Source: a virus
Taxonomy: Duplodnaviria; Heunggongvirae; Uroviricota; Caudoviricetes
Virus record (IMG/VR): IMGVR_UViG_2541047879_000001
Length of the DNA stretch: 64,000 bases
Reading direction: 5' to 3' (one strand)
How positions within the stretch are numbered: position 1 is the stretch's first letter; every line of letters begins with the position of its first letter. Below, one piece after another: positions 2,379 through 16,600 of the stretch. The notes below the pieces were generated by a model that saw only the letters and a program-made list of their open reading frames with translations, ran no database searches and was not told the origin of the DNA. The translations under genes were made by a program, and so were the position numbers.

Positions 2379-4033
2379 CCCCGTTCAAATTCATGATATG
2401 CCTCATCGTCATCACGATAACCGCCCTCCATTGCCCGCGACCGCTCCGGCAGCGCCTGACAGGCTGATTCATCCAGGATGAATCCCTCCATGTATGACGC
2501 CCGGTTTGCCATACAGAGTGCCACGGCAAAATCACCATGGCGGCGGGCGTTCGCAGCCGTTGCGTTCTGGTCCTTCGTGCGCCCCTTGTCGATTTGCGGG
2601 ATACCATTCACCACCTTCACATGGCGCAAATCATCAAGCGTGGTCTGATGGCGGGCGACGAGGATATTCTGATCTTCAAACTCGGCTTTCAGTTTTGGCA
2701 TCCACTCGCCGTACCACTTCGGCGACAACATCACGCAGTCGATGATGTCCGGGCCAAAGGCCAGCAGTGCGGCTTCTGCCAGATAGCCGCCGTTACCGGT
2801 GGCGTCGAACGCCGCACCGACCAGCGCCGGAACGCGGGTCAGGATGTACATCATCACCTGTTCCTGCTGGGCATACGGCAGGTTGCGCAGCTCCACGCGA
2901 AACACCTCGCGCTTTGCCAGGGATTCGGTGATTTCCAGCAGCACAAAGCAGGACAGGTCACCGGTGCGGGCAAAGTCTTCCCCGAAGCTGAAGCGGGAAC
3001 GGGGATTTAATTTCTCTAAAAGCGGTTTTAAATGTTCTTCACACCAGGTTAAAACTTCCGATTCACGCAGCCATGCGGCACGGCTGATGAAGTTGTCCGG
3101 GGCTTCAAACGTCAGAATCGGGATGTCGCGGATCATCGCCATTTCAATAAGCGCGTGAGGAATATAGGCACCGCCGGATTTTTTCGGGATACAGCCGTAT
3201 TCCTCGTCGGCATCCTCACGGGTCGGGGCGTTTTTGTAGAGATCATCACGCCATTTCTGCTCGCTTTCCGGTGACCATTCCTGATCGGTGACGTAACAGA
3301 TACGACGGTACAGCCCGTCCGCAATGGCATCATCCAGGGTTATGCGGTGGACGCTGTAATCCTTGCGCCCCTCGCGGGCTTCCTGAATGTACTGATTAAA
3401 CAGATTATCGACGCCGTTATGCGTGGAGATAATACGCACGCGCGCGCCCCACATAGTGAGCGCCATTGCCGCCTTGAGAAGCTCATCCAGTGACTCGTGG
3501 AACGCGGCTTCATCAATCACCACATCCCCCTGAAGGCCGCGCAGGTTTGACGGACGGGAAGACAGTGCCTGAATTTTGAATCCACTGTTCGGAAAGCGGA
3601 TCATGTAGGTCAGAATTTCTTCTTTTTTATCCCGATCCCAGAAGGTCTGCTCATACACATCAGCATCCGCCAGCTGGTTAAAGGCGCGGGAGAACAGGGC
3701 GCAGGCAGAAATATATTCCAGCGCCATCTCCTGCTTTGATCCCACATAAAACACATTGCGGCCACCACGACGCTTCGGTTTTGCAGCAGTAATGACGTTA
3801 CGCCCGGCTTCCGCCCAGGTAAGACCGGTGCGGCGGGATTTTTCCGCAATGCAGACCTGACTTTCATCCTCAAACCAGCGGGCCTGATAATCCAGAAACA
3901 CCGGCATATCACCGGGCAAATCAAGTCTGTCCGGCACATCCACGCCCAGCAGGGCTTTTTCACCGGACAGATCAATTTTGCGGGGAGGCGTCATTTGTAT
4001 CAGTGAAGGAGACGTTTCTTTGGCTTTGTTCAT
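2369..4033 (-). CDS. Terminase large subunit (Mu gp28-like)
   Basis: 554-aa ORF directly upstream of the portal gene with 10-nt overlap; ATPase/nuclease-sized; Mu gene order. Confidence 0.75.
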   Translation of the reverse strand: MNKAKETSPSLIQMTPPRKIDLSGEKALLGVDVPDRLDLPGDMPVFLDYQARWFEDESQVCIAEKSRRTGLTWAEAGRNVITAAKPKRRGGRNVFYVGSKQEMALEYISACALFSRAFNQLADADVYEQTFWDRDKKEEILTYMIRFPNSGFKIQALSSRPSNLRGLQGDVVIDEAAFHESLDELLKAAMALTMWGARVRIISTHNGVDNLFNQYIQEAREGRKDYSVHRITLDDAIADGLYRRICYVTDQEWSPESEQKWRDDLYKNAPTREDADEEYGCIPKKSGGAYIPHALIEMAMIRDIPILTFEAPDNFISRAAWLRESEVLTWCEEHLKPLLEKLNPRSRFSFGEDFARTGDLSCFVLLEITESLAKREVFRVELRNLPYAQQEQVMMYILTRVPALVGAAFDATGNGGYLAEAALLAFGPDIIDCVMLSPKWYGEWMPKLKAEFEDQNILVARHQTTLDDLRHVKVVNGIPQIDKGRTKDQNATAANARRHGDFAVALCMANRASYMEGFILDESACQALPERSRAMEGGYRDDDEAYHEFERGCW

Positions 4034-5688: not shown

Positions 5689-6060
5689 TTACTTCGTCTT
5701 TCCTGCCGGAACAGCAGACGTTCCGGCCATATCAGTAAATTCATGCTGTCGCCGTACCTCCAGACGGCGGATGCTGGCCTTGTCCACGTTGCAGTTCTTA
5801 ATCACCGCCAGCAGTTGCAGGTTGTAAGTGACCGATGCGCCAAACGTGAACGGCTGCGGCACAGAAGGGACCAGACAGTCAGCCAGCCATTCAGCGGGGA
5901 TCGGCACCGGCTTCACCGGCACGTATTTCACAGACGGCCCGCCGCACCCGGTCAGCCACATCATCAGGCACAGGAACAGCGGCCGCAGGCACCGTTGCCA
6001 GCGACCGGCGGACAATGCTCTGCTGTTCCTCGCTGTGCTGCATGTTCTGCTGTTTTTCAT
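5689..6060 (-). CDS. Putative o-spanin (Rz1-like outer-membrane lipoprotein)
   Basis: Frame overlapping the 3' end of the i-spanin candidate; basic n-region, hydrophobic core and lipobox LTGC, proline-rich mature part; start uncertain (6060 or 5964). Confidence 0.4.
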   Translation of the reverse strand: MKNSRTCSTARNSRALSAGRWQRCLRPLFLCLMMWLTGCGGPSVKYVPVKPVPIPAEWLADCLVPSVPQPFTFGASVTYNLQLLAVIKNCNVDKASIRRLEVRRQHEFTDMAGTSAVPAGKTK

Positions 6061-6241
6061 TCGTGGCCGCCTTACTGATTTGTGAAATGAGTTGCAGGGT
6101 GCGTTGCTGGTTTGCCAGCACCAGACGGGCTTCGTCCCGTTCACGCACAAGCACATGATTATTGTCCTCAAGGCGCTGCGTCTTCTGGTGCATTCCCCAT
6201 ACCACGGCAGCCAGCACACTCATCACCCCCAGCGCCGCCAT
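5891..6241 (-). CDS. Putative i-spanin (Rz-like)
   Basis: Start at ATG 6241 preceded by GGAGG 4 nt upstream; N-terminal TM segment MAALGVMSVLAAVVW then coiled-coil-like periplasmic region; downstream of endolysin. Confidence 0.45.
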   Translation of the reverse strand: MAALGVMSVLAAVVWGMHQKTQRLEDNNHVLVRERDEARLVLANQQRTLQLISQISKAATNEKQQNMQHSEEQQSIVRRSLATVPAAAVPVPDDVADRVRRAVCEIRAGEAGADPR

Positions 6242-6353
6242 ACAGCCTCCGGCAATCAGGGCTGGTAAGGGATTATTCACCGCAGCCACAGCACACCCCG
6301 CAGCACCACAACAGCACACAGCAGCGCAATCATGAGCGGTCGCCAGAAACGGT

Positions 6354-6854
6354 TCAGACTTTCGGCAAGTCGTAACGACATAACCATTCATCCGCCGAAC
6401 GGCGGGCCTCAAGACCGGGGAGTTTCACCCCCTTTGAATAAATCCAGCGGATATACTGCTTACAGGACGCGGGCATCTGCCCGGCATTGATAAGGCGCAG
6501 GAGCGTGGAGTTGCGAAAGTTCGTTTCACCGGCCCAGAAAATCCAGGAGGCCAACGCCACCGTCTGACCACGGGTAAGCGGCACCTGAACATGACGATCG
6601 ATAGCCGCAAAGGCCCATTTCATGTCCTTTTCCAGCAGCTCCAGACACTCTTCATCAGTTTTTGTCATCCCCGGTTTCACATCCGGGCCGGTATGGCCGT
6701 AACAGATGGTGGGGGTGCCGGTGGGATCAATGTACGTGGTGTTTTCTTTCCCTTCCCAGTAGCCGGTGTAGTGCGTGGCAATGGTGAACGTCCCGGCTCC
6801 GGCCAGAACAAGGGCAATCAGCTTTTTACGCAGGGGTGCGGGGAGTTTTGGCAT
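6354..6854 (-). CDS. SAR endolysin (phage lysozyme, GH24-like)
   Basis: 166 aa; N-terminal signal-anchor-release-like segment LIALVLAGAGTFTIA and catalytic region TICYGHTG resembling phage 21 R-type lysozymes. Confidence 0.8.
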   Translation of the reverse strand: MPKLPAPLRKKLIALVLAGAGTFTIATHYTGYWEGKENTTYIDPTGTPTICYGHTGPDVKPGMTKTDEECLELLEKDMKWAFAAIDRHVQVPLTRGQTVALASWIFWAGETNFRNSTLLRLINAGQMPASCKQYIRWIYSKGVKLPGLEARRSADEWLCRYDLPKV

Positions 6855-6925
6855 TGTTACGCTGTCTCATGGTGTTCTCTGAGTCAGCGTAACCGTGGGA
6901 AAAAGTGGGCAGGATTTGCGGAATA

Positions 6926-7348
6926 TCAGAAAAGCCGGGGCTGCGTGCGTTCCTGATGCAGGCGGCGCTGGTTACGGATAACGGAGTAAATCTGCGTCTC
7001 TGACATCTGGTAGTGGCGGCGCAGGGTTTCAATTTTTTCGCCCTGGCTCCAGCGGGAAAAAATCTCATTATTGCGCAGTTCGGTGAAAAGGGATTCACCG
7101 ACCGGGAGATAATAACCACGCCCGCCCATGTACCCGGCCTGTGCGGCCGCAACTTTACGGGCAAGCATTCCCGCCTGAGCAGGTTCAATCCCCTGACGGT
7201 GCAGTTCAGCACTGATCACATCAACCAGGTCCCGCAGCGTGCCGGGCCAGTTCTTTTTCAGCTCATCATCAGGAATATCATCCAGACGGTCAATCAGCGC
7301 GTGCAGCTGTTCGCTGTCACCAAACATGCTCATCTGTGTTTCAGCCAT
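6926..7348 (-). CDS. Mor/C-family transcriptional activator
   Basis: 140 aa; C-terminal HTH region IETLRRHYQMSETQIYSVIRNQRR resembles Mu Mor/C; located between GemA-like gene and lysis genes. Confidence 0.7.
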   Translation of the reverse strand: MAETQMSMFGDSEQLHALIDRLDDIPDDELKKNWPGTLRDLVDVISAELHRQGIEPAQAGMLARKVAAAQAGYMGGRGYYLPVGESLFTELRNNEIFSRWSQGEKIETLRRHYQMSETQIYSVIRNQRRLHQERTQPRLF

Positions 7349-7418
7349 ACCCGCCTCCGGTCATCATTACACAGGGCAAGTTTAAAATAAAAATCCCGCG
7401 CTGTGGCGGGATTTGGAG

Positions 7419-7931
7419 TTAACGGGGGAATGATTTTTCATACAGCCTGCAAACGCGCTCATAACTTATCACTGTACGCGCTGACATCCCCAGCACATCC
7501 AGCATTTTGCGGCGGTGCCAGCGTTTGAGACGCTCCAGCACATCAGAGGCCAGTGCGGGGTGTTGCTCCAGCCACTGCCAGTTAGCCACACCTTCACCGC
7601 CGTTCTGCGCGGCCGTCTGCGATTTCACCCAGCGGTTAATGGCGTTTTCCCCGCCATCAGCGATAAAGCCCTGCCGGTGCATCACTTTCCAGATGGCGCG
7701 AATTTTGGCGGTCACCGTCCCCGGTTTTAAGGCCCGGTTAACCGGCTTCTGACGCACTTTAAAACCGCGTTTTTTGAAAACATCCAGCACGCGGGATAAC
7801 TCATCCGGTGACATATCCCGGCAACTGGGTTTGCCGGTGGCTGCCAGTAGTACGGATGTGTAGGTCTCATGGTCAAGCTGTAGATCGCGTTTTGCGACAT
7901 GTATTAAGGTAATCAGGGAAGCGCGATTCAT
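7419..7931 (-). CDS. GemA-like protein (Mu gp16 family)
   Basis: 170-aa ORF immediately upstream of the Mor-like gene, Mu synteny. Confidence 0.55.
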   Translation of the reverse strand: MNRASLITLIHVAKRDLQLDHETYTSVLLAATGKPSCRDMSPDELSRVLDVFKKRGFKVRQKPVNRALKPGTVTAKIRAIWKVMHRQGFIADGGENAINRWVKSQTAAQNGGEGVANWQWLEQHPALASDVLERLKRWHRRKMLDVLGMSARTVISYERVCRLYEKSFPR

Positions 7932-7995
7932 TATCGTGTCTCCGTAACAACAGGCGGCATGGCAACGCCGCCCGGATAAAACTAAAGGTATCGAT

Positions 7996-8406
7996 ATGAA
8001 AATAGATTACGATGAAGTATTAAGTATTCTCACAACTTTTCAGGATGCTGAAACACCTTTCCTTACACTACAGGATCTGGGCATGGCTGAGGCAGAAGGA
8101 GAGGAAAAGGATAAAAAAGTTTTTCATCTTATGCTTCTCGCTGATAATGGCTCAATTGTTAATGGTGATATGCAGTCAGAAACACCCAAATATATTGGTT
8201 TCTTTTTCCATTCTCTGGGCGTTGGTTTCAGAAACACGCCCATTATGCTTACCCAGCAGGGGCATGATTTAGCTAACGCCCTGAGAAAAAAACCAATCCT
8301 TGAAAGAATCAAAAAGGAGTTTACAGACGCACCATTTGATCTAATTAAAGAAGTTACCAAATCAATGTTAACCAGGTTCGTCAAAGAACGTATTGGGATT
8401 GACTGA
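7996..8406 (+). CDS. Hypothetical protein (AT-rich, opposite strand to surrounding operon)
   Basis: 136-aa ORF, ATG start; only plus-strand gene inside the minus-strand Mu-like operon; visibly lower GC. Confidence 0.45.
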   Translation: MKIDYDEVLSILTTFQDAETPFLTLQDLGMAEAEGEEKDKKVFHLMLLADNGSIVNGDMQSETPKYIGFFFHSLGVGFRNTPIMLTQQGHDLANALRKKPILERIKKEFTDAPFDLIKEVTKSMLTRFVKERIGID

Positions 8407-8676
8407 ACAACTTAATTCAGCCAGTAATCGCAGGGCGGCGACAGCCGCCTGCTTGTCACTTCTTTTAGCTATTTCCGCAAGAGTATGCACAATCCATAAC
8501 GGACTTAACGCCACGGCTGAATCCAGAATCATGTCATCCATAATAATTTCTGGCATATCCCGCTTGTCACATTCTTTATCCATAAAAGAAACGAATTTCT
8601 CTGCATCTTCCGGTTTCATGCCTCCGGCGATAAGGATTTTGCGATATTCATAAGACGATCTTAATTCAATACTCAT
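8368..8676 (-). CDS. Hypothetical protein
   Basis: 102-aa ORF convergent with and overlapping 7996-8406 by 39 bp. Confidence 0.4.
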   Translation of the reverse strand: MSIELRSSYEYRKILIAGGMKPEDAEKFVSFMDKECDKRDMPEIIMDDMILDSAVALSPLWIVHTLAEIAKRSDKQAAVAALRLLAELSCSVNPNTFFDEPG

Positions 8677-8691
8677 TATTCACCTGCCTGC

Positions 8692-9084
8692 TTAATCTGT
8701 TTCCAGTGCTTTGCTACGGGCTATAGCCTCACATTCAAAAAATACCGACTCCGGCACGCGCTCTTTTAATTCACGAACAAGGAAATCATTAACGCGTTCA
8801 TGACGTCTTATATTTCTTTCCTTTTCCTCCTGGCGCAATACAGCAAGGCGGTATTCAACAGCCCGGCGTTGTTTCTGAAAGACAGCCAGTGCTTTTCTGG
8901 CAGCATTACGCCATGCATCATCGCCACATGGTGCGTATTCAAGCTGAAATTTAATCTCTTCAATAGTTTCTTTGATTTTTGCCAGCAAGCTAAGACAGTC
9001 GCTTATTGTCTCCAGCTTTTCATTATCAATATAACTTCTCACGCATTCACCTCCCGTAATTCCGGTAAAGCCGAAATATGACAC
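8692..9084 (-). CDS. Hypothetical protein
   Basis: 130-aa ORF in accessory block; charged coiled-coil-like C-terminus. Confidence 0.4.
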   Translation of the reverse strand: MSYFGFTGITGGECVRSYIDNEKLETISDCLSLLAKIKETIEEIKFQLEYAPCGDDAWRNAARKALAVFQKQRRAVEYRLAVLRQEEKERNIRRHERVNDFLVRELKERVPESVFFECEAIARSKALETD

Positions 9085-9368
9085 CAGTGCGTCACCTGTC
9101 CGTCTTCATCTTCAAGGCAGGCTCCGGTTTCTTCATCAACAAAAAAGCCTTCATACCCCATATGGCCGATGCGCAGCTCCTGACGGTGACCATACTGAAC
9201 AATCAGCACGACAGCCTCCATATCAGGTGGGAAAGCATCATTCAGTGAATGCCAGGGATAACCGCGTAAATCCCCGAAATAAACACCGGTCAGCGTTCCG
9301 CCACAGAGCGGCATTCCGGCGGCACACACAAGAGGTTCATCTGATTCAACAAATAAGGTCGTTATCAT
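9039..9368 (-). CDS. Hypothetical protein
   Basis: 109-aa ORF, translationally coupled to upstream gene (ATGA overlap at 9365-9368). Confidence 0.4.
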   Translation of the reverse strand: MITTLFVESDEPLVCAAGMPLCGGTLTGVYFGDLRGYPWHSLNDAFPPDMEAVVLIVQYGHRQELRIGHMGYEGFFVDEETGACLEDEDGQVTHWCHISALPELREVNA

Positions 9369-9916
9369 GGCGTTAACTCCCGTAATACAGCGTCCTCGGC
9401 AGTCCGGCGACGGTAATAAACTGCGTGAGCAGAATGTTCAGATATTCCAAACTTTTCGCCAATTTCCCGGAATGACAGACGGCGTGGGTAATCGGAATCA
9501 CGCAGCGCACGTATAAGACGTACATCATCATCAGATATGCGCGTGCCGGGGCGTAACTCTCCGCACTTTGTTAATCCAGCACCAATCATTCCTGCCCGAC
9601 ATCTGACAGAATCTTTATTACGTCCGAGATATTCTCCCATTTGCTGGCAGGTCATTGTTCTGGCATTTTTTCGAATAAACTTATCTTCATCAGGTGTAAA
9701 TCTTGGGTGTTTATATTTCAGTAACTCCGGGTATGAACTGCGCAATACACCAGTCCGGTTATATACAGCCCAGACAGTTCTTTTTATTCTGGCAGCAATA
9801 TCCTTAACCGGGGTGGATGAATAAAGCGCAATCAGTAGCGCATCTTCTTCAGGTGTCCACGCGCGGACATGAGCGGGTGTACGACCTTTTCGCCCCATGT
9901 GTTGTAAAATCATCAT
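9365..9916 (-). CDS. Putative DNA-binding protein with two Myb/SANT-like repeats
   Basis: 183 aa; repeats RAWTPEEDALLIALY...IAARIKRTVWAVYNR and PRFTPDEDKFIRKN...MGEYLGRNKDSVRCR fit the W/F-T-P-E/D-E-D Myb pattern; C-terminal HTH-like segment. Confidence 0.5.
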   Translation of the reverse strand: MMILQHMGRKGRTPAHVRAWTPEEDALLIALYSSTPVKDIAARIKRTVWAVYNRTGVLRSSYPELLKYKHPRFTPDEDKFIRKNARTMTCQQMGEYLGRNKDSVRCRAGMIGAGLTKCGELRPGTRISDDDVRLIRALRDSDYPRRLSFREIGEKFGISEHSAHAVYYRRRTAEDAVLRELTP

Positions 9917-9919
9917 ACA

Positions 9920-10435
9920 TCACCCCCTGACTCGCTTTTCGGCAGCATAAAACTCATCAGACAGAATTTCGGTCATTTTCCGTTTTGCGGAATCATCTTC
10001 GCACTGAAGATAAATCACATTGTCAACGCAGAACCAGTTCACGGGACCATACAATATTGCTGAGAAGTCAATACCCAGCCAGAACAACAGGGCATCGGTT
10101 CTGGCATACGTGACGGGCGAATATTCACGCCACAGACTGTTCAGTTCATCAGAGGCAACACGCAGGGCTTTAGGGATACGTGATGTGCGCGGTGTGCAGC
10201 TCCAGCCATTCGACGCAGTCGGTTTTCGCCATAAGTCGCGATGAAAAGGATATTTGTCCTCCGTAAAACGCAGTCCCTTAAAACAAAAACCACTGATACT
10301 GAATTCAAATACCGACCGGCACGCAACATTCAGCACGGCCTCAAGGCGTTTCGCCTCATCTTTTACCGTCTGGCAGTCCTGCTGGTATTTTTGCCACGCA
10401 GCCAGCGCGGAAGGGTTTGATGTTTTAAAGAACAT
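9920..10435 (-). CDS. Hypothetical protein
   Basis: 171-aa ORF in Mu-like accessory (semi-essential) region. Confidence 0.45.
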   Translation of the reverse strand: MFFKTSNPSALAAWQKYQQDCQTVKDEAKRLEAVLNVACRSVFEFSISGFCFKGLRFTEDKYPFHRDLWRKPTASNGWSCTPRTSRIPKALRVASDELNSLWREYSPVTYARTDALLFWLGIDFSAILYGPVNWFCVDNVIYLQCEDDSAKRKMTEILSDEFYAAEKRVRG

Positions 10436-10968
10436 TACGCCACCTCCGCAGATATCCCGGCAGGCGCTGCTGTCCGGTCAACAATCAGGTAGCGCAGAAC
10501 ACGCGCGGTGATATTCCAGCCGCTTAAACCGCAGATGATGACACCCAGGCGAATGTCGATATACGCCATCACAAACTGGGGCACGCCTTCTTTCATGGCC
10601 TGCTCATCAACTTCAGCCACCACATAAACGGTTTCACAGGTCAGAACGCCCTGAGCAAATTCCCACGCCATCGACGGAATATCATGCCCCTCAATCCATG
10701 GCAGGGATTTTCTGAAGCTGCACCACTGAACATCATCAGCCGCAGATTCCTGTCTGCATTTGCGACGAATCGGCTGCACCGGGCGGGGACGCGGAATATC
10801 ATAAAAACCGTTACATTCCGTCAGCACCCCGGCATCAACCGCATCACGCAGAAAATAAACCATGGAGGATGGCGGCATATTCATTTTTTCAGCCAGTACG
10901 CCGCAGGTCAGACGCCCGTAAATACTCAGCCAGTTTTTAACCCCTTCAAGCACTTTTGCATCAATCAT
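10435..10968 (-). CDS. Hypothetical protein (possible winged-helix N-terminus)
   Basis: 177-aa ORF; start overlaps upstream stop. Confidence 0.45.
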   Translation of the reverse strand: MIDAKVLEGVKNWLSIYGRLTCGVLAEKMNMPPSSMVYFLRDAVDAGVLTECNGFYDIPRPRPVQPIRRKCRQESAADDVQWCSFRKSLPWIEGHDIPSMAWEFAQGVLTCETVYVVAEVDEQAMKEGVPQFVMAYIDIRLGVIICGLSGWNITARVLRYLIVDRTAAPAGISAEVA

Positions 10969-10971
10969 GAA

Positions 10972-11514
10972 TTATTCCTCCGTCAGCGCCACATATTCAG
11001 AATGTTTAATTTCCTGGCATTCTTCAGGAATACATCCGTTTATTTCCCTGCCATAAGCGCCCACTTTAAACACCACGCACAGGGCATCACGGGAGAACGA
11101 AGGGGTCCACCAGGAGTCCGTGTTAAACATGGAGGGGATTCTCATTACCCCCAGCTTTTCACAGAGCCAGACAAGGAAATCAGGACGCTTTCTTAACTCG
11201 CGTTCAGCGGCTTCAATCATTGCGGCAATCGCCGGTCCTTCAGGGCATGACTCATCAGGTCTGGCTATAAAGCACTGTCCGCCACCGATAAAAGCCACAT
11301 CATCGCGCTTACGCCAGCCCGCAGGCAGAGCACCGGCAAAATAAAACTCACTGATTCTGTCCATGGCGAACGGCTTTAAGCGCAATCCGGCAGCGCCTGT
11401 ATTTTTCAGTAATGTCCGAAGAATACTGTTGCGTAGCGGTAAAACAGCCTGTTGATATTTGGTGAAATATTTATTTGTCTGCACACGGTCTAATTTGAAA
11501 TAAAAATATGCCAT
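10972..11514 (-). CDS. Hypothetical protein
   Basis: 180-aa ORF downstream of Gam-like gene. Confidence 0.45.
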   Translation of the reverse strand: MAYFYFKLDRVQTNKYFTKYQQAVLPLRNSILRTLLKNTGAAGLRLKPFAMDRISEFYFAGALPAGWRKRDDVAFIGGGQCFIARPDESCPEGPAIAAMIEAAERELRKRPDFLVWLCEKLGVMRIPSMFNTDSWWTPSFSRDALCVVFKVGAYGREINGCIPEECQEIKHSEYVALTEE

Positions 11515-11611: not shown

Positions 11612-12142
11612 TTATTTATTCAGTCCGGCATCCTGTTCAAAAGGCTCGACATAAAAACTTTCAGCGCCTTTATTCACCTTTATACCGGCAATGCCTTTCA
11701 CCGCATCCGGCTCCGCCAGGACGGCTTCCTTGTTCACTTCCTCTTTCGTGCGGATGAATCGCTCAAGCCCCATACGGCGCAGCGTGTCAATCACACCTTC
11801 CACATCACGGCTGACGCTGCATGATGGCGTTCCCAGCCGCCATGACACCGTTCCGGTGGTCAGATTGGCAGTTTTGGTTTTGCCGCCGTTCGTCAGCTCA
11901 TCACGGTTGGTTTTACACCAGTCCTGAATCCCTTTAAAAAGCACTTTGATTTGCTTTTTAAGATTTTCAATCTGCGGCGTATAACGGGCGGTGATTTCTG
12001 CCACTTCATCATTCATCGCCGTTTCCAGGCGCAGCGCCTCTCGCTGAATATCGCCCAGGGTGCGGATATCGCGGCTGACTTCTTCGCGGGTCTGCGGTGC
12101 GGCCTCGGCTACAGCCTTTAATTTTGTAACGCGTTTTGCCAT
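11612..12142 (-). CDS. gam: Gam-like host-nuclease inhibitor (Mu Gam family, DNA end-binding)
   Basis: 176 aa; strong similarity to Mu Gam across the whole length (e.g. RLETAMND..., CKTNRDELTNGGKTKTANL, RFIRTKEEVNKEA). Confidence 0.85.
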   Translation of the reverse strand: MAKRVTKLKAVAEAAPQTREEVSRDIRTLGDIQREALRLETAMNDEVAEITARYTPQIENLKKQIKVLFKGIQDWCKTNRDELTNGGKTKTANLTTGTVSWRLGTPSCSVSRDVEGVIDTLRRMGLERFIRTKEEVNKEAVLAEPDAVKGIAGIKVNKGAESFYVEPFEQDAGLNK

Positions 12143-13270: not shown

Positions 13271-13498
13271 TTAGCTGACTTGTTTCGCACCAACAGAACG
13301 GCATATTCCGCTGTAAACTTCTGTCGCACCTTCGCGATCAAGTCCGGCAGATATCACCATTCGTGTGCGGTCATTAAATTCAAAAAGTAAATCGCCACAT
13401 TCTTTATTTTCGGCCAGTGAAATCACCTTCACGTTATCGAAATTAACCAGGTAAAAGCGTCCGTAAATATCAGGAATATTAAATACCGCCATAATCAC
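13271..13498 (-). CDS. Hypothetical small early protein
   Basis: 75-aa ORF directly downstream of B-like gene. Confidence 0.35.
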   Translation of the reverse strand: MIMAVFNIPDIYGRFYLVNFDNVKVISLAENKECGDLLFEFNDRTRMVISAGLDREGATEVYSGICRSVGAKQVS

Positions 13499-14436
13499 AC
13501 CTGTGAGAGTAATTCAGGGTTGGTATAAACCTCTTTAAAGGCCGCATTAATATGTTTTTCTGTCAGCGCCGCGCCTTCACCGCTGGCGGTGAGCCACGCC
13601 TGGTTAAGCGTATGTGTCAGAACGCGTAACGCTCCCGGCTTTTCAGCGATAGCCTGCATGACGGCCAGCTCGGCCTCACCACTGATCCCCCACGCCATGG
13701 CAATGGCCAGCACATCCGCCTTTTTGGCCTTGCGAAGTTGTTTTGTACGGGCAAGACGGCTGAACAGGCGCGATAAATCATCAAAGGCGCGGCGTCCACC
13801 TTTAAACAATCCGCGCGGGTTACCAATAAGCACCATCCCGATCCCCGTGGCGTCCTGAATTGCCCGGAGTTGCTCCAGACCGTCAATACCAAGATGATCC
13901 GCCTCATCCACAATCACCAGTCCACGCGTTCCCATCAGGCGACGGCGGATGGCGCGGGATAATGCCCCTTTGTTCGCGCGGGTGTAATCAATCCCCAGCG
14001 CATCGGCCAGCTCCAGCAGACACTCCGTGACGCTGGAGTGCGCGGGTGACAGGGTGATCATCCAGGTGTTTGGTTGCTCCTGGCAGTAATTACGGGCAGT
14101 GGCCGTTTTACCCACACCCGGTACGCCCACAATAACGTTAATACAGCCCATCAGGCGAACCGCCTGAAACAGTGCGCGCAGCTCCTGGACTGTCTGAGTT
14201 TCCACAAACTGCGGCGGTTCCGGCAGTGCGCTTTGTTTATTCCAGTTCTCATACCAGGAGCGCAGGGAAGCAGCCACAGCAGCGTTATCGCCTTTATATT
14301 TTCCCTTACGGAAAGCCGATAATGTGCCGTCGGAAATTCCCGCCTCTCTGGCGATGGCATACTGCGTCAGTACGCCGCCATCAATAAGTTCATCAATGGT
14401 CTTGATTACATCGTTAATATCGGTCATATTATTCAC
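13495..14436 (-). CDS. MuB-like transposition ATPase (target DNA activator B)
   Basis: 313 aa; Walker A GVPGVGKT; near-colinear similarity to Mu B (PEPPQFVETQTV..., GLVIVDEADHLG...). Confidence 0.85.
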   Translation of the reverse strand: MNNMTDINDVIKTIDELIDGGVLTQYAIAREAGISDGTLSAFRKGKYKGDNAAVAASLRSWYENWNKQSALPEPPQFVETQTVQELRALFQAVRLMGCINVIVGVPGVGKTATARNYCQEQPNTWMITLSPAHSSVTECLLELADALGIDYTRANKGALSRAIRRRLMGTRGLVIVDEADHLGIDGLEQLRAIQDATGIGMVLIGNPRGLFKGGRRAFDDLSRLFSRLARTKQLRKAKKADVLAIAMAWGISGEAELAVMQAIAEKPGALRVLTHTLNQAWLTASGEGAALTEKHINAAFKEVYTNPELLSQV

Positions 14437-14509: not shown

Positions 14510-16600
14510 TCAGGCCAGCGGATCACTTTCTTTTAATTTCGCTTCGAGCAACTGCAATCCCCGCTGGAAATTACGCTCGTATTCTTCATCAGGTTCATCG
14601 TCAGCGACCGGTTGCTGAACGGTCACCGTATTACCCACAGGGCGGTATATGTTTTCCAGCCAGGGCTCCTGCGGCTTGTGCTCCAGCACGTTGACAACCT
14701 CATCCTCGGCATCACGGATTTTTTCCTCTGCGCGTTTACGCATGCCTTTAAGGCGCTGCTGCTGTTTGTAGTATTCCGCGCTGACAGGGAAGGCTTCGCG
14801 TTTATTGCCGTCCCATACCGCCTCGCAAATCACGCTGCCATCCGGGCGGCGCACGGTAATTCGTTCGGCATCATGAATGTCATAGCTGATAAGTACCTTA
14901 CGGCCATGCTCGTCACGCAGCTCGGGCGCGTAGTAAATATTATTCAGCCAGCGTATTTCACAGCGTCTTACAGGGCGCTCCACCATCGGCCGGAACATAT
15001 CCCGCAGTTCAACATCGGACAGCCATTCAATTTCCGTGTCCTCTTCCGCCAGGCGTTTTTTTCTGAACTCCGCCGGGCTGTAATGTTTACCGTTCGGCTT
15101 CATGGGTAATTCATCGTGCGGCCGGTTGTTGTACCACTCAACACCGTCACGAATGGCATCAATCAGTTCAGACCAGGACGGTAAATCACGCATCGCTGAC
15201 TGCTGCCGGGCGTTCAGCCGTTTGCCCTGTTGCAGGGCACTGAATGCCGAGCGTAAATCGCGGTTGGTTTTACGTAACGTCTCGCGATCTGCTCCTTTCC
15301 CGAAATAGGTGCGGTATTTACGGGCTATGCGCATCGGTAATGTGCGGTTAAGCCGTTCGATAATGCCCCGTCCCTGCGGATTACCGGCAATCCCTGTCGG
15401 GTGATTAATCCCCAGTCGTGGCAGTATCCCCACAATCTCCTTATCCAGGACGTCGGCGGTTTCCCCGGAGCCATTATCCGAGTAATACAGAAACGGTTTG
15501 CCATGATGGCGAATACCGTGCTGTATGGCACCGGCTACGGCGAAAACATTTTCAGCCAGGTCAAGGCTCCAGCCCACCACAAAGCGCGTGCCACCGTCGA
15601 TAACAAAGGTCACTTCCGGTGCGAATGGCCGCCCGTGAACCGGGTGCGCGCATTTCAGCTTCATGCCGTGACCGTCACCAATCCAGACATAATTCACCGG
15701 CATTCTGGACCAGTCGCGGCGCGTGAATCCCTCAAGCTGACGGTATTCACTGCCAGTTACCCGGCCTTTTTGTTTCACCACTTCCGGCAGTTTCTTCATT
15801 GCGCGGCGAATGGTGTCATAAGAGGGCATGATATCGAGCATATAAGGCTCATCAGCGTGCCGGTGCTGCCATTCAGCAACAAAATCCTCGTAAGCCTCGG
15901 TCATTGGTCGGCCGTTTGACTGGCGATACTGCGCCAGAAATTCGGGCAGCCAGTTAATATCTTCGGCTTTTATTTCCTGGCGTTTACCCGGTGCCAGTAA
16001 AAGCAGGCGTTCAGCGGCGTTCTGTGCCTTGTTAAAGGCCGCAATCCAGCGTTTCAGCGTGATTTCACTCAACGCGCGGCTGTTTCCCTTTTTGGCGTTC
16101 GCCGTCTCAACCATTGCCACAATGCGCTCGTCCAGTTGTGATCGTGCCAGGCTGTTAACGAGGAACCGGATAGCCTTAGCGCAACTAAAGCCGGGTTGTT
16201 GCGCGATTTTCAGCACCTCGCTGACGATCGCTATTCGTGCCTCTGCCACTTTACGTTGGTTTTCAGTCAGGGCATTGAGGCGTTCGACCATCAGTTGGGG
16301 TGATCCGCGATATGCCTCCACCGCATCAACCACGGCAGGTGAGCGTCTGGCCTTTGTCACCACCGGAGCCGGTGATTCATCGGCTTTTTGCGTCATCAGT
16401 TGCAGGGCGTAGCGTTCACGTAATGCCTGCTGCGTCACTTCAGGTAAACAGTCGATGCTGTATTCAGTTGCTTTAGAGCCTGAGCGACGACGGGAACAAC
16501 AGCTTTTCCCTTGTACGTAACGTTGTAATGCCTGGCGAATACCTTTTGTTGTAGCAGGCATTCCGGGCGCGCCAATCAGTTCTTTTGCAATGACATACAT
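14510..16600 (-). CDS. MuA-like DDE transposase
   Basis: 696-aa ORF between ner-like and B-like genes; size and position of Mu transposase A. Confidence 0.85.
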   Translation of the reverse strand: MYVIAKELIGAPGMPATTKGIRQALQRYVQGKSCCSRRRSGSKATEYSIDCLPEVTQQALRERYALQLMTQKADESPAPVVTKARRSPAVVDAVEAYRGSPQLMVERLNALTENQRKVAEARIAIVSEVLKIAQQPGFSCAKAIRFLVNSLARSQLDERIVAMVETANAKKGNSRALSEITLKRWIAAFNKAQNAAERLLLLAPGKRQEIKAEDINWLPEFLAQYRQSNGRPMTEAYEDFVAEWQHRHADEPYMLDIMPSYDTIRRAMKKLPEVVKQKGRVTGSEYRQLEGFTRRDWSRMPVNYVWIGDGHGMKLKCAHPVHGRPFAPEVTFVIDGGTRFVVGWSLDLAENVFAVAGAIQHGIRHHGKPFLYYSDNGSGETADVLDKEIVGILPRLGINHPTGIAGNPQGRGIIERLNRTLPMRIARKYRTYFGKGADRETLRKTNRDLRSAFSALQQGKRLNARQQSAMRDLPSWSELIDAIRDGVEWYNNRPHDELPMKPNGKHYSPAEFRKKRLAEEDTEIEWLSDVELRDMFRPMVERPVRRCEIRWLNNIYYAPELRDEHGRKVLISYDIHDAERITVRRPDGSVICEAVWDGNKREAFPVSAEYYKQQQRLKGMRKRAEEKIRDAEDEVVNVLEHKPQEPWLENIYRPVGNTVTVQQPVADDEPDEEYERNFQRGLQLLEAKLKESDPLA

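Follow-up and report, generated by a model that had tools for sequence, protein, structure and literature searches.

The question raised by this locus is whether an open reading frame in a Mu-like prophage of Escherichia coli, predicted to encode two Myb/SANT-like repeats followed by a C-terminal HTH-like segment, truly encodes a protein of that kind, to which family such a protein belongs, and what it may do for the phage. The window, that is the whole stretch of DNA that was analysed (64,000 nucleotides of IMG/VR record IMGVR_UViG_2541047879_000001), begins inside this prophage, as judged by the order of the same-strand genes that surround the open reading frame.

Gene position and operon setting

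Exactly one open reading frame (ORF) is found at 9365..9916 on the minus strand, as originally predicted. It is complete and encodes 183 amino acids, and its coordinates include the TGA stop codon. The product has a computed pI of 10.0 and a computed net charge of about +13. A Shine-Dalgarno sequence, AGGGGG (9923-9928, minus strand), can be read 6 nucleotides before the ATG at 9916 and overlaps the upstream gene at its end, the TGA stop codon of that gene being at 9920-9922. At the other end, the TGA of the Myb-repeat gene and the ATG of the next gene (9039-9368, PHROG 6925) form an ATGA overlap at 9365-9368 on the minus strand, which points to translational coupling of the Myb-repeat gene within the early operon. 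A search for a promoter-like site upstream of the gene found none.

The early operon is encoded on the minus strand and contains Mu transposase A (14510-16600), MuB (13495-14436), Gam (11612-12142) and a gene of PHROG 2260 (10972-11514), which has no Mu homologue and precedes the homologue of Mu_11 (10435-10968). The homologue of Mu_12 (gp12; 9920-10435) lies directly upstream of the Myb-repeat gene. Three small ORFs of PHROGs 6925, 6158 and 1988 are located downstream of it on the same strand, followed by GemA (7419-7931), Mor (6926-7348), and then the lysis and head genes. This early-operon position after the gp12 homologue places the gene in the accessory ("semi-essential") part of a Mu-like early operon, in agreement with the accessory location first proposed for it.

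Several other features are found in this part of the operon. A terminator-like hairpin, rated strong (7391-7414, minus strand; a 9-bp stem with 5 GC pairs, and a T-run), sits in the 70-nucleotide gap between the stop of gemA (7419) and the start of mor (7348). The two genes overlap and share a transcript in Mu; mor of the window prophage may need read-through or a promoter of its own for expression. A 136-amino-acid ORF on the plus strand (7996-8406) opposes the early operon between the PHROG 1988 ORF and gemA. It belongs to PHROG 585, shows a DUF2513-like match of 23.6 bits, which is below the cut-off, and looks like an inserted moron; other small ORFs are found at this site in NZ_CP116067, which carries an identical Myb-repeat gene. 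Finally, the mechanically called ORF at 8692-9084 (minus strand, GTG start) overlaps the preceding ORF (9039-9368) by 46 nucleotides, and its true start probably lies further downstream, as its match to PHROG 6158 begins at its residue 15.

Architecture of the protein and homology of its repeats

Structure prediction was performed with AlphaFold2 on an alignment of 33 full-length homologues. The model has a mean pLDDT of 88.8 and contains three three-helix units and a C-terminal helix. All segments described here are given in minus-strand coordinates. The N-terminal arm (residues 1-18; 9863..9916) is conserved, basic and rich in proline and glycine, with the consensus xMxLxPMGxPGxxPAHVR, and is predicted to be unstructured (pLDDT 55-74). 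Myb-like repeat 1 (residues 19-61; 9734..9862) starts with W20-TPEED and has helices at 22-31, 37-44 and 48-61. Myb-like repeat 2 (residues 73-110; 9587..9700) starts with F73-TPDED and has helices at 75-84, 90-97 and 101-110. A conserved linker (residues 111-125; 9542..9586) follows, in which K117 and G119 of the motif KCG[DE] are invariant. The third tri-helical HTH unit (residues 126-169; 9410..9541) has helices at 129-140, 149-156 and 160-169, and the protein ends with a conserved C-terminal helix (residues 170-183; 9368..9409; R-TAxDAxxRELLP). Across the 33-sequence alignment, the conserved elements are the first helices, the GR[TS] turn, helix 2 of the third unit, the KCG[DE] linker, and the C-terminal helix.

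The starts of the first two repeats, W20-T-P-E-E-D and F73-T-P-D-E-D, are 53 residues apart, and the start of the third unit, I127-S-D-D-D-V, lies 54 residues beyond F73. Comparison of repeat 1 with repeat 2 within the single sequence gave only a weak signal (local score z 3.2, shuffle p about 0.01), and family profiles were therefore needed. For this purpose the repeats were cut out of the 33-sequence alignment and compared by profile-profile alignment with hhalign. Repeats 1 and 2 match over 42 columns (Prob 98.9%, P 1e-17), repeat 2 and the third unit over 35 columns (Prob 92%, P 6e-7), and repeat 1 and the third unit over 21 columns (Prob 88%, P 3.5e-6). The protein consists, then, of two clearly homologous repeats and a more distant third unit of the same kind. 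The repeat alignments, purifying selection on the gene as a whole (dN/dS 0.28-0.30 between alleles) and the presence of related copies in 71 of 5426 complete E. coli genomes together show a real gene with a real internal repeat rather than a chance pattern; three of these genomes carry an identical gene.

Relationship to Myb and other helix-turn-helix families

The two repeats resemble Myb/SANT domains in several of the features that define them. In the AlphaFold2 model each is a three-helix unit of about 50 residues in which helices 2 and 3 form the HTH, and the two are mutually homologous and arranged in tandem with a spacing (W20 to F73) close to the Myb period of about 52 residues. When the family profile was searched against PDB sequences, the best five matches were all R2R3 regions of c-Myb, B-Myb or v-Myb (E 6e-8 to 1e-6), and the alignment to Myb R2R3 forms a single contiguous stretch with both repeats in register. 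Other HTH proteins in the same search were at least four orders of magnitude worse (Mos1 2.6e-3, NarL 9e-3, sigma 0.5), so that by this comparison the repeats are closer to Myb than to the other HTH classes. Together with the homology of the repeats to each other and their modelled fold, this bears out the prediction of two Myb/SANT-like repeats. The predicted C-terminal HTH-like segment is likewise seen, as the third tri-helical unit of the model, which gives only generic HTH matches (AsnC-type, HTH_10, sigma-70 region 4), all of them below cut-off.

The likeness is incomplete in the hydrophobic core. Myb repeats carry three spaced tryptophan or aromatic core residues, of which only the first is present here (W20, F73); the second and third tryptophan positions are occupied by aliphatic or polar residues in alignments with c-Myb. 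Of the sequence pattern that was first noticed, W/F-T-P-E/D-E-D at the start and a trailing W/Y, the repeat starts are therefore real, and the trailing aromatic residue is not found. Compared with R2R3 of c-Myb and B-Myb (PF00249; PDB 1H88, 1MSE, 1A5J), the phage repeats share the tandem arrangement of three-helix units of about 52 residues, the W-[ST]-x-E-E-D start and the GR[TS] ahead of helix 3. They differ in the aliphatic residues at the second and third core tryptophans and in a loop between helices 1 and 2 that is about 3 residues shorter, and the phage protein adds a third, non-Myb HTH and an N-terminal arm. The term Myb-like tri-helical HTH repeats is accurate for this protein, and the term canonical Myb domain is not.

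The Pfam Myb_DNA-binding model (PF00249) scores 25.2 bits against a cut-off of 24.4, with an aligned stretch that covers residues 19-33 only, and among the 33 family members it matches 19 at E<=0.01, as compared to 22 for Sigma70_r4. No significant match was obtained with phmmer for the single protein against the PDB. Foldseek with the whole AlphaFold2 chain against the PDB gave none either (best E 0.05), presumably because small, flexibly linked domains do not superpose as one body. DNA-binding domains from the Tc3/Mos1 transposases, the archaeal protein Cbp2 (2LVS) and the Myb repeats of SNAPc4 are among the top Foldseek and hmmsearch matches. Like the phage protein, they possess tri-helical HTH modules on flexible linkers for an extended asymmetric site within one polypeptide; unlike them, the phage protein has no transposase or other domain and belongs to a different biological setting, and the matches are weak (Foldseek E at least 0.05).

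Membership in three other families was considered and rejected. The AsnC-type HTH reaches 19.8 bits against a cut-off of 27, is located C-terminally and is not accompanied by AsnC_trans_reg; the third unit does resemble an AsnC-type HTH, whereas the RAM/ligand-binding domain of the AsnC/Lrp family is missing and the architecture differs. For sigma-70 factors, Sigma70_r4 scores 12.1 bits against 24.1 and TIGR02937 12.2 against 42.9. Caulobacter GcrA (PDB 5YIU/5YIV) is similar at the generic tri-helical level; the Pfam GcrA model has no match in the phage protein, nor does the latter possess the C-terminal sigma-70-interacting CCCH zinc domain. No family was found among the NCBIfam profiles.

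Relationship to T5 D5 and abundance of the family

The protein matches PHROG 323 ("transcriptional regulator, D5-like") with an E value of 5.8e-52 over profile positions 82-256. The D5 protein of phage T5 (AAS77164) belongs to the same PHROG (E 1.2e-71, profile positions 3-270). Direct comparison of the family profile with T5 D5 by hhalign gave a Prob of 97.3% and an E value of 2.3e-11 over 163 columns, aligning residues 17-183 with D5 residues 71-251. This alignment spans all three units, including the repeat starts PWTPEQE and SFTPDEE, the GR-x motif and the third HTH, at a remote identity of about 23%. From this span, the window protein is a shortened homologue of T5 D5 that is without the first 70-80 residues of the latter. 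The full D5 architecture (255 amino acids) includes this N-terminal segment of about 70 residues, which is probably a fourth HTH-like unit and is absent in the window protein. Both proteins are expressed early in the phage cycle and contain no enzymatic domain. They differ in that D5 comes from a virulent phage, in which replication and late transcription are described as depending on it, whereas the window gene is itself an accessory cassette, found in temperate phages of the Mu-like and P2-like types.

The T5 GenBank record lists D5 as a protein that binds DNA, is needed for late transcription as well as for DNA replication, and takes part in shutoff. A 2026 preprint (PMC13405049) reports that D5 is the natural trigger, or activator, of a type IX retron (retron-Kva2), attributes this activation, from an AlphaFold3 model, to binding of the retron msDNA by the HTH of D5, and finds D5 mildly toxic in E. 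coli. Literature searches on Myb/SANT-like phage or prophage proteins returned nothing relevant and no report on the window protein or a close homologue.

Such repeats had been expected to be uncommon in bacteria and phages, which proved incorrect. An exhaustive search of the family profile against 1.84 billion cluster representatives gave 8170 proteins at E<=1e-3, and 27 phage structures in BFVD match at the same threshold, including three Goslar proteins, endonucleases and a vibriophage "D5 protein". In addition, PHROG 323 already contains D5, and the RefSeq name of the window protein is "SANT/Myb-like DNA-binding domain-containing protein", with some alleles named "AsnC family protein", a label that many homologues bear at NCBI as well. 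An annotation of the gene thus exists already, and its family, that of the T5 D5 relatives, is a large and known one among phages. Many of the 8170 proteins are long, and metagenomic proteins with 4-11 tandem copies of the Myb-like repeat number in the thousands. The metagenomic unit is about 48 residues in length (WTxEEDxxLxxxYxxxxxxEIAxxLGRSxxSVxxRAxxLGL), and some of the multi-repeat proteins are fused to a superfamily-2 helicase, one of which scores 140 bits in 7 stretches with the Pfam Myb model. Pfam divides these multi-repeat proteins among Myb and a dozen generic HTH families, and no dedicated family was seen. T5.108 (7546-10332 of the T5 locus compared), the helicase named "replication origin binding protein" of T5, is annotated with SANT/Myb IPR001005. 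It was rejected as a family member, as the D5-like family profile has no match in it (hhalign E 0.31), and any Myb-like unit there would be of a different lineage.

Distribution and genomic contexts

Only 17 phage records match the Myb-repeat protein. The gene always comes after the homologue of Mu gp12 in the Mu-like prophages of E. coli and Salmonella. An ORF of 108-109 amino acids (PHROG 6925) comes next in most of these loci and is absent from several loci with the 72%-identical allele described below; variable cargo follows, and then gemA-mor. No homologue was found in phage Mu itself, which has the small ORFs Mu_13, Mu_14 and Mu_54 at the equivalent position. Two Salmonella Mu-like prophages carry a dATP/dGTP pyrophosphohydrolase-like gene (PF04447) as cargo (loci 6040-6987 and 2624-3700), at a distance of two to three genes downstream from the Myb-like gene; the window prophage lacks it.

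Homologues with 38-46% identity are found in Salmonella P2-like prophages, again in the early operon. The gene order there is a D12-class adenine methyltransferase, usually a 109-amino-acid ORF, the homologue, and the replication gene A, with none or one gene in between. The neighbouring ORFs of about 109 amino acids in the Mu-like and P2-like contexts were considered as a conserved partner and are unrelated (BLASTP E 0.28). In nine P2-like loci, from Salmonella and viral contigs, the homologue lies 1-2 genes downstream of the D12-class N6-adenine methyltransferase, and in some of them it adjoins a C5-methylase or a PAPS-reductase-like gene. The homologue of Citrobacter phage Shae_phiSM is instead preceded by an ead/Ea22-like gene, and a scan of genome contigs added at least one locus, in Citrobacter murliniae. 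Common to these contexts are a temperate phage and early expression, at a position upstream of the late activators.

Proposed role

Taken together, the fold, the D5 homology and the operon position make it rather probable that this D5-like protein of three HTH modules is an accessory early binder of duplex DNA that modulates transcription or replication. That the protein binds DNA at all is very probable; that its main role is the modulation of transcription is a little short of an even bet. The first suggestion, a host-takeover or transcription factor, is plausible in view of the homology to T5 D5. The gene appears to have no promoter of its own and is translated from the long early Pe transcript (ner-A-B-...-gam-gp10/11/12 homologues-Myb-repeat gene-...-gemA-mor), so that its product is made early after induction or infection. 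The product is a small, very basic protein of three tandem three-helix HTH modules, two of them Myb-like and one related. As in R2R3 of c-Myb, each third helix may occupy the major groove of a DNA duplex, and one molecule would then cover an extended site of about two to three helical turns; major-groove reading of this kind by one polypeptide is likened also to that of the Tc3/Mos1 DNA-binding domains and Cbp2. As no enzymatic or effector domain is present, the protein would act by occupancy, and this occupancy may modulate the transcription programme of the phage, the host or both, as well as replication, by analogy with T5 D5. Its absence from Mu and its exchange as a mosaic cassette mark the function as accessory, outside the phage core.

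Some points count against this explanation. The homology to D5 is remote, the mechanism of D5 is itself poorly defined, and the extra N-terminal segment of D5 is missing from the window protein. Of the three core tryptophans of Myb, the second and third are not retained, and the whole-chain Foldseek search of the PDB gave no significant match. Moreover, SANT-type domains can bind proteins instead of DNA.

Allelic variation and alternative explanations

Two alleles are found in the E. coli Mu-like prophages. Their identity to each other is 72% (dS about 0.55-0.6), against 90-97% for the flanking genes, indicating that this mosaic cassette alone has been exchanged by recombination. The synonymous divergence between the alleles (dS 0.55-0.67) is similar in the third helices and in the rest of the protein. 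The amino acid differences are distributed very unevenly: 13 of 34 positions are identical in the third helices of the three units (dN/dS 0.75-0.96), as against 118 of 149 in the rest of the protein (dN/dS 0.18-0.19; Fisher p 9e-6 for the difference in identity). Across the 33 sequences of the family, too, the third helices are the least conserved of the structured elements. This pattern would be expected if the scaffold were kept while the DNA-reading surface changes, and since the divergence falls chiefly in the recognition helices it suggests that the alleles have different DNA targets. The high dN/dS of the third helices could also reflect relaxed constraint rather than changed specificity.

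The same pattern can be read as the mark of a conflict gene, whose product would silence competing mobile elements or host defence loci as an inter-phage or anti-defence binder, or would itself be sensed, as by type IX retrons, so that its helices take part in an arms race. A dN/dS near 1 confined to the three recognition helices, the mosaic allele between well-conserved flanks, an accessory position in two unrelated types of temperate phage, and the triggering of retron-Kva2 by T5 D5, reportedly via its HTH (PMC13405049), all fit this explanation. The dN/dS, however, does not exceed 1 and is estimated from 34 codons only, the retron link belongs to a distant homologue, and no anti-defence gene is known among the neighbours; the PADLOC defence models matched neither the Myb-repeat gene nor seven neighbouring genes. 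We regard a conflict gene as rather unlikely. A combined reading, in which the gene is a fast-evolving specificity cassette with recognition helices reshaped by conflict, either for allele-specific silencing or for escape from D5-sensing retrons (or, as a variant, a methyl-DNA reader working with phage Dam-like methyltransferases), is unlikely.

The position of the gene is also what would be expected of an accessory factor for replication or transposition, which would bind the phage ends, the origin or the target and aid Mu-like transposition and the gene-A rolling circle of P2-like phages. In both phage types the gene belongs to the replication operon, downstream of A, B and gam in the one and immediately upstream of gene A in the other, and a requirement for DNA replication is part of the annotation of T5 D5. 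Mu, D108-type and other studied transposable phages nevertheless replicate without the gene, as shown by the absence of a Mu homologue and the small number of matching phage records, and transposition and rolling-circle replication are not likely to share one specific cofactor. Such a role is improbable as the main function.

The GcrA-like fold and the methyltransferase next to the P2-like homologues jointly hint at a connection with DNA methylation. Here the protein would be a reader of methylated DNA that recognises N6-methyladenine sites with a GcrA-like HTH and couples methylation by a phage Dam-like methyltransferase to transcription. Mycobacteriophage matches that overlap methylase and HNH genes point in the same direction as the nine P2-like loci, but these nine represent one related lineage, so that the adjacency may be plain synteny. 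No methyltransferase is adjacent in the Mu-like context, including the window, or neighbours the homologue of Shae_phiSM, and the similarity to GcrA is of the generic tri-helical kind, with the sigma-interacting zinc domain absent. A methylated-DNA reader is accordingly considered very unlikely. Lastly, the retention of just one of the three Myb tryptophans could be taken to indicate a SANT-type module with a protein partner from host or phage, such as RNA polymerase or a nucleoid protein, which is most improbable for a strongly basic protein (pI 10) in which each of the third helices opens with a conserved GR[TS], as in Myb repeats that bind DNA, and whose homologue T5 D5 is annotated as DNA-binding in GenBank.

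Significance

Two database labels are corrected by the analysis. The label "AsnC family protein" is a misnomer for the family, and "SANT/Myb-like" is right but incomplete, since the protein is a three-module relative of T5 D5. The current understanding is otherwise unchanged, as repeats of the Myb-like HTH type occur commonly in proteins of phages and prokaryotes, and the one result that is mildly unexpected is that the allelic divergence is concentrated in the recognition helices. The analysis links T5 D5, the one family member with known biology, to an accessory gene that E. coli and Salmonella carry in Mu-like (Sp18-type) and P2-like prophages, and the concentration of allelic change in the recognition helices leads to a simple, testable prediction, namely that each allele would have a different DNA target.
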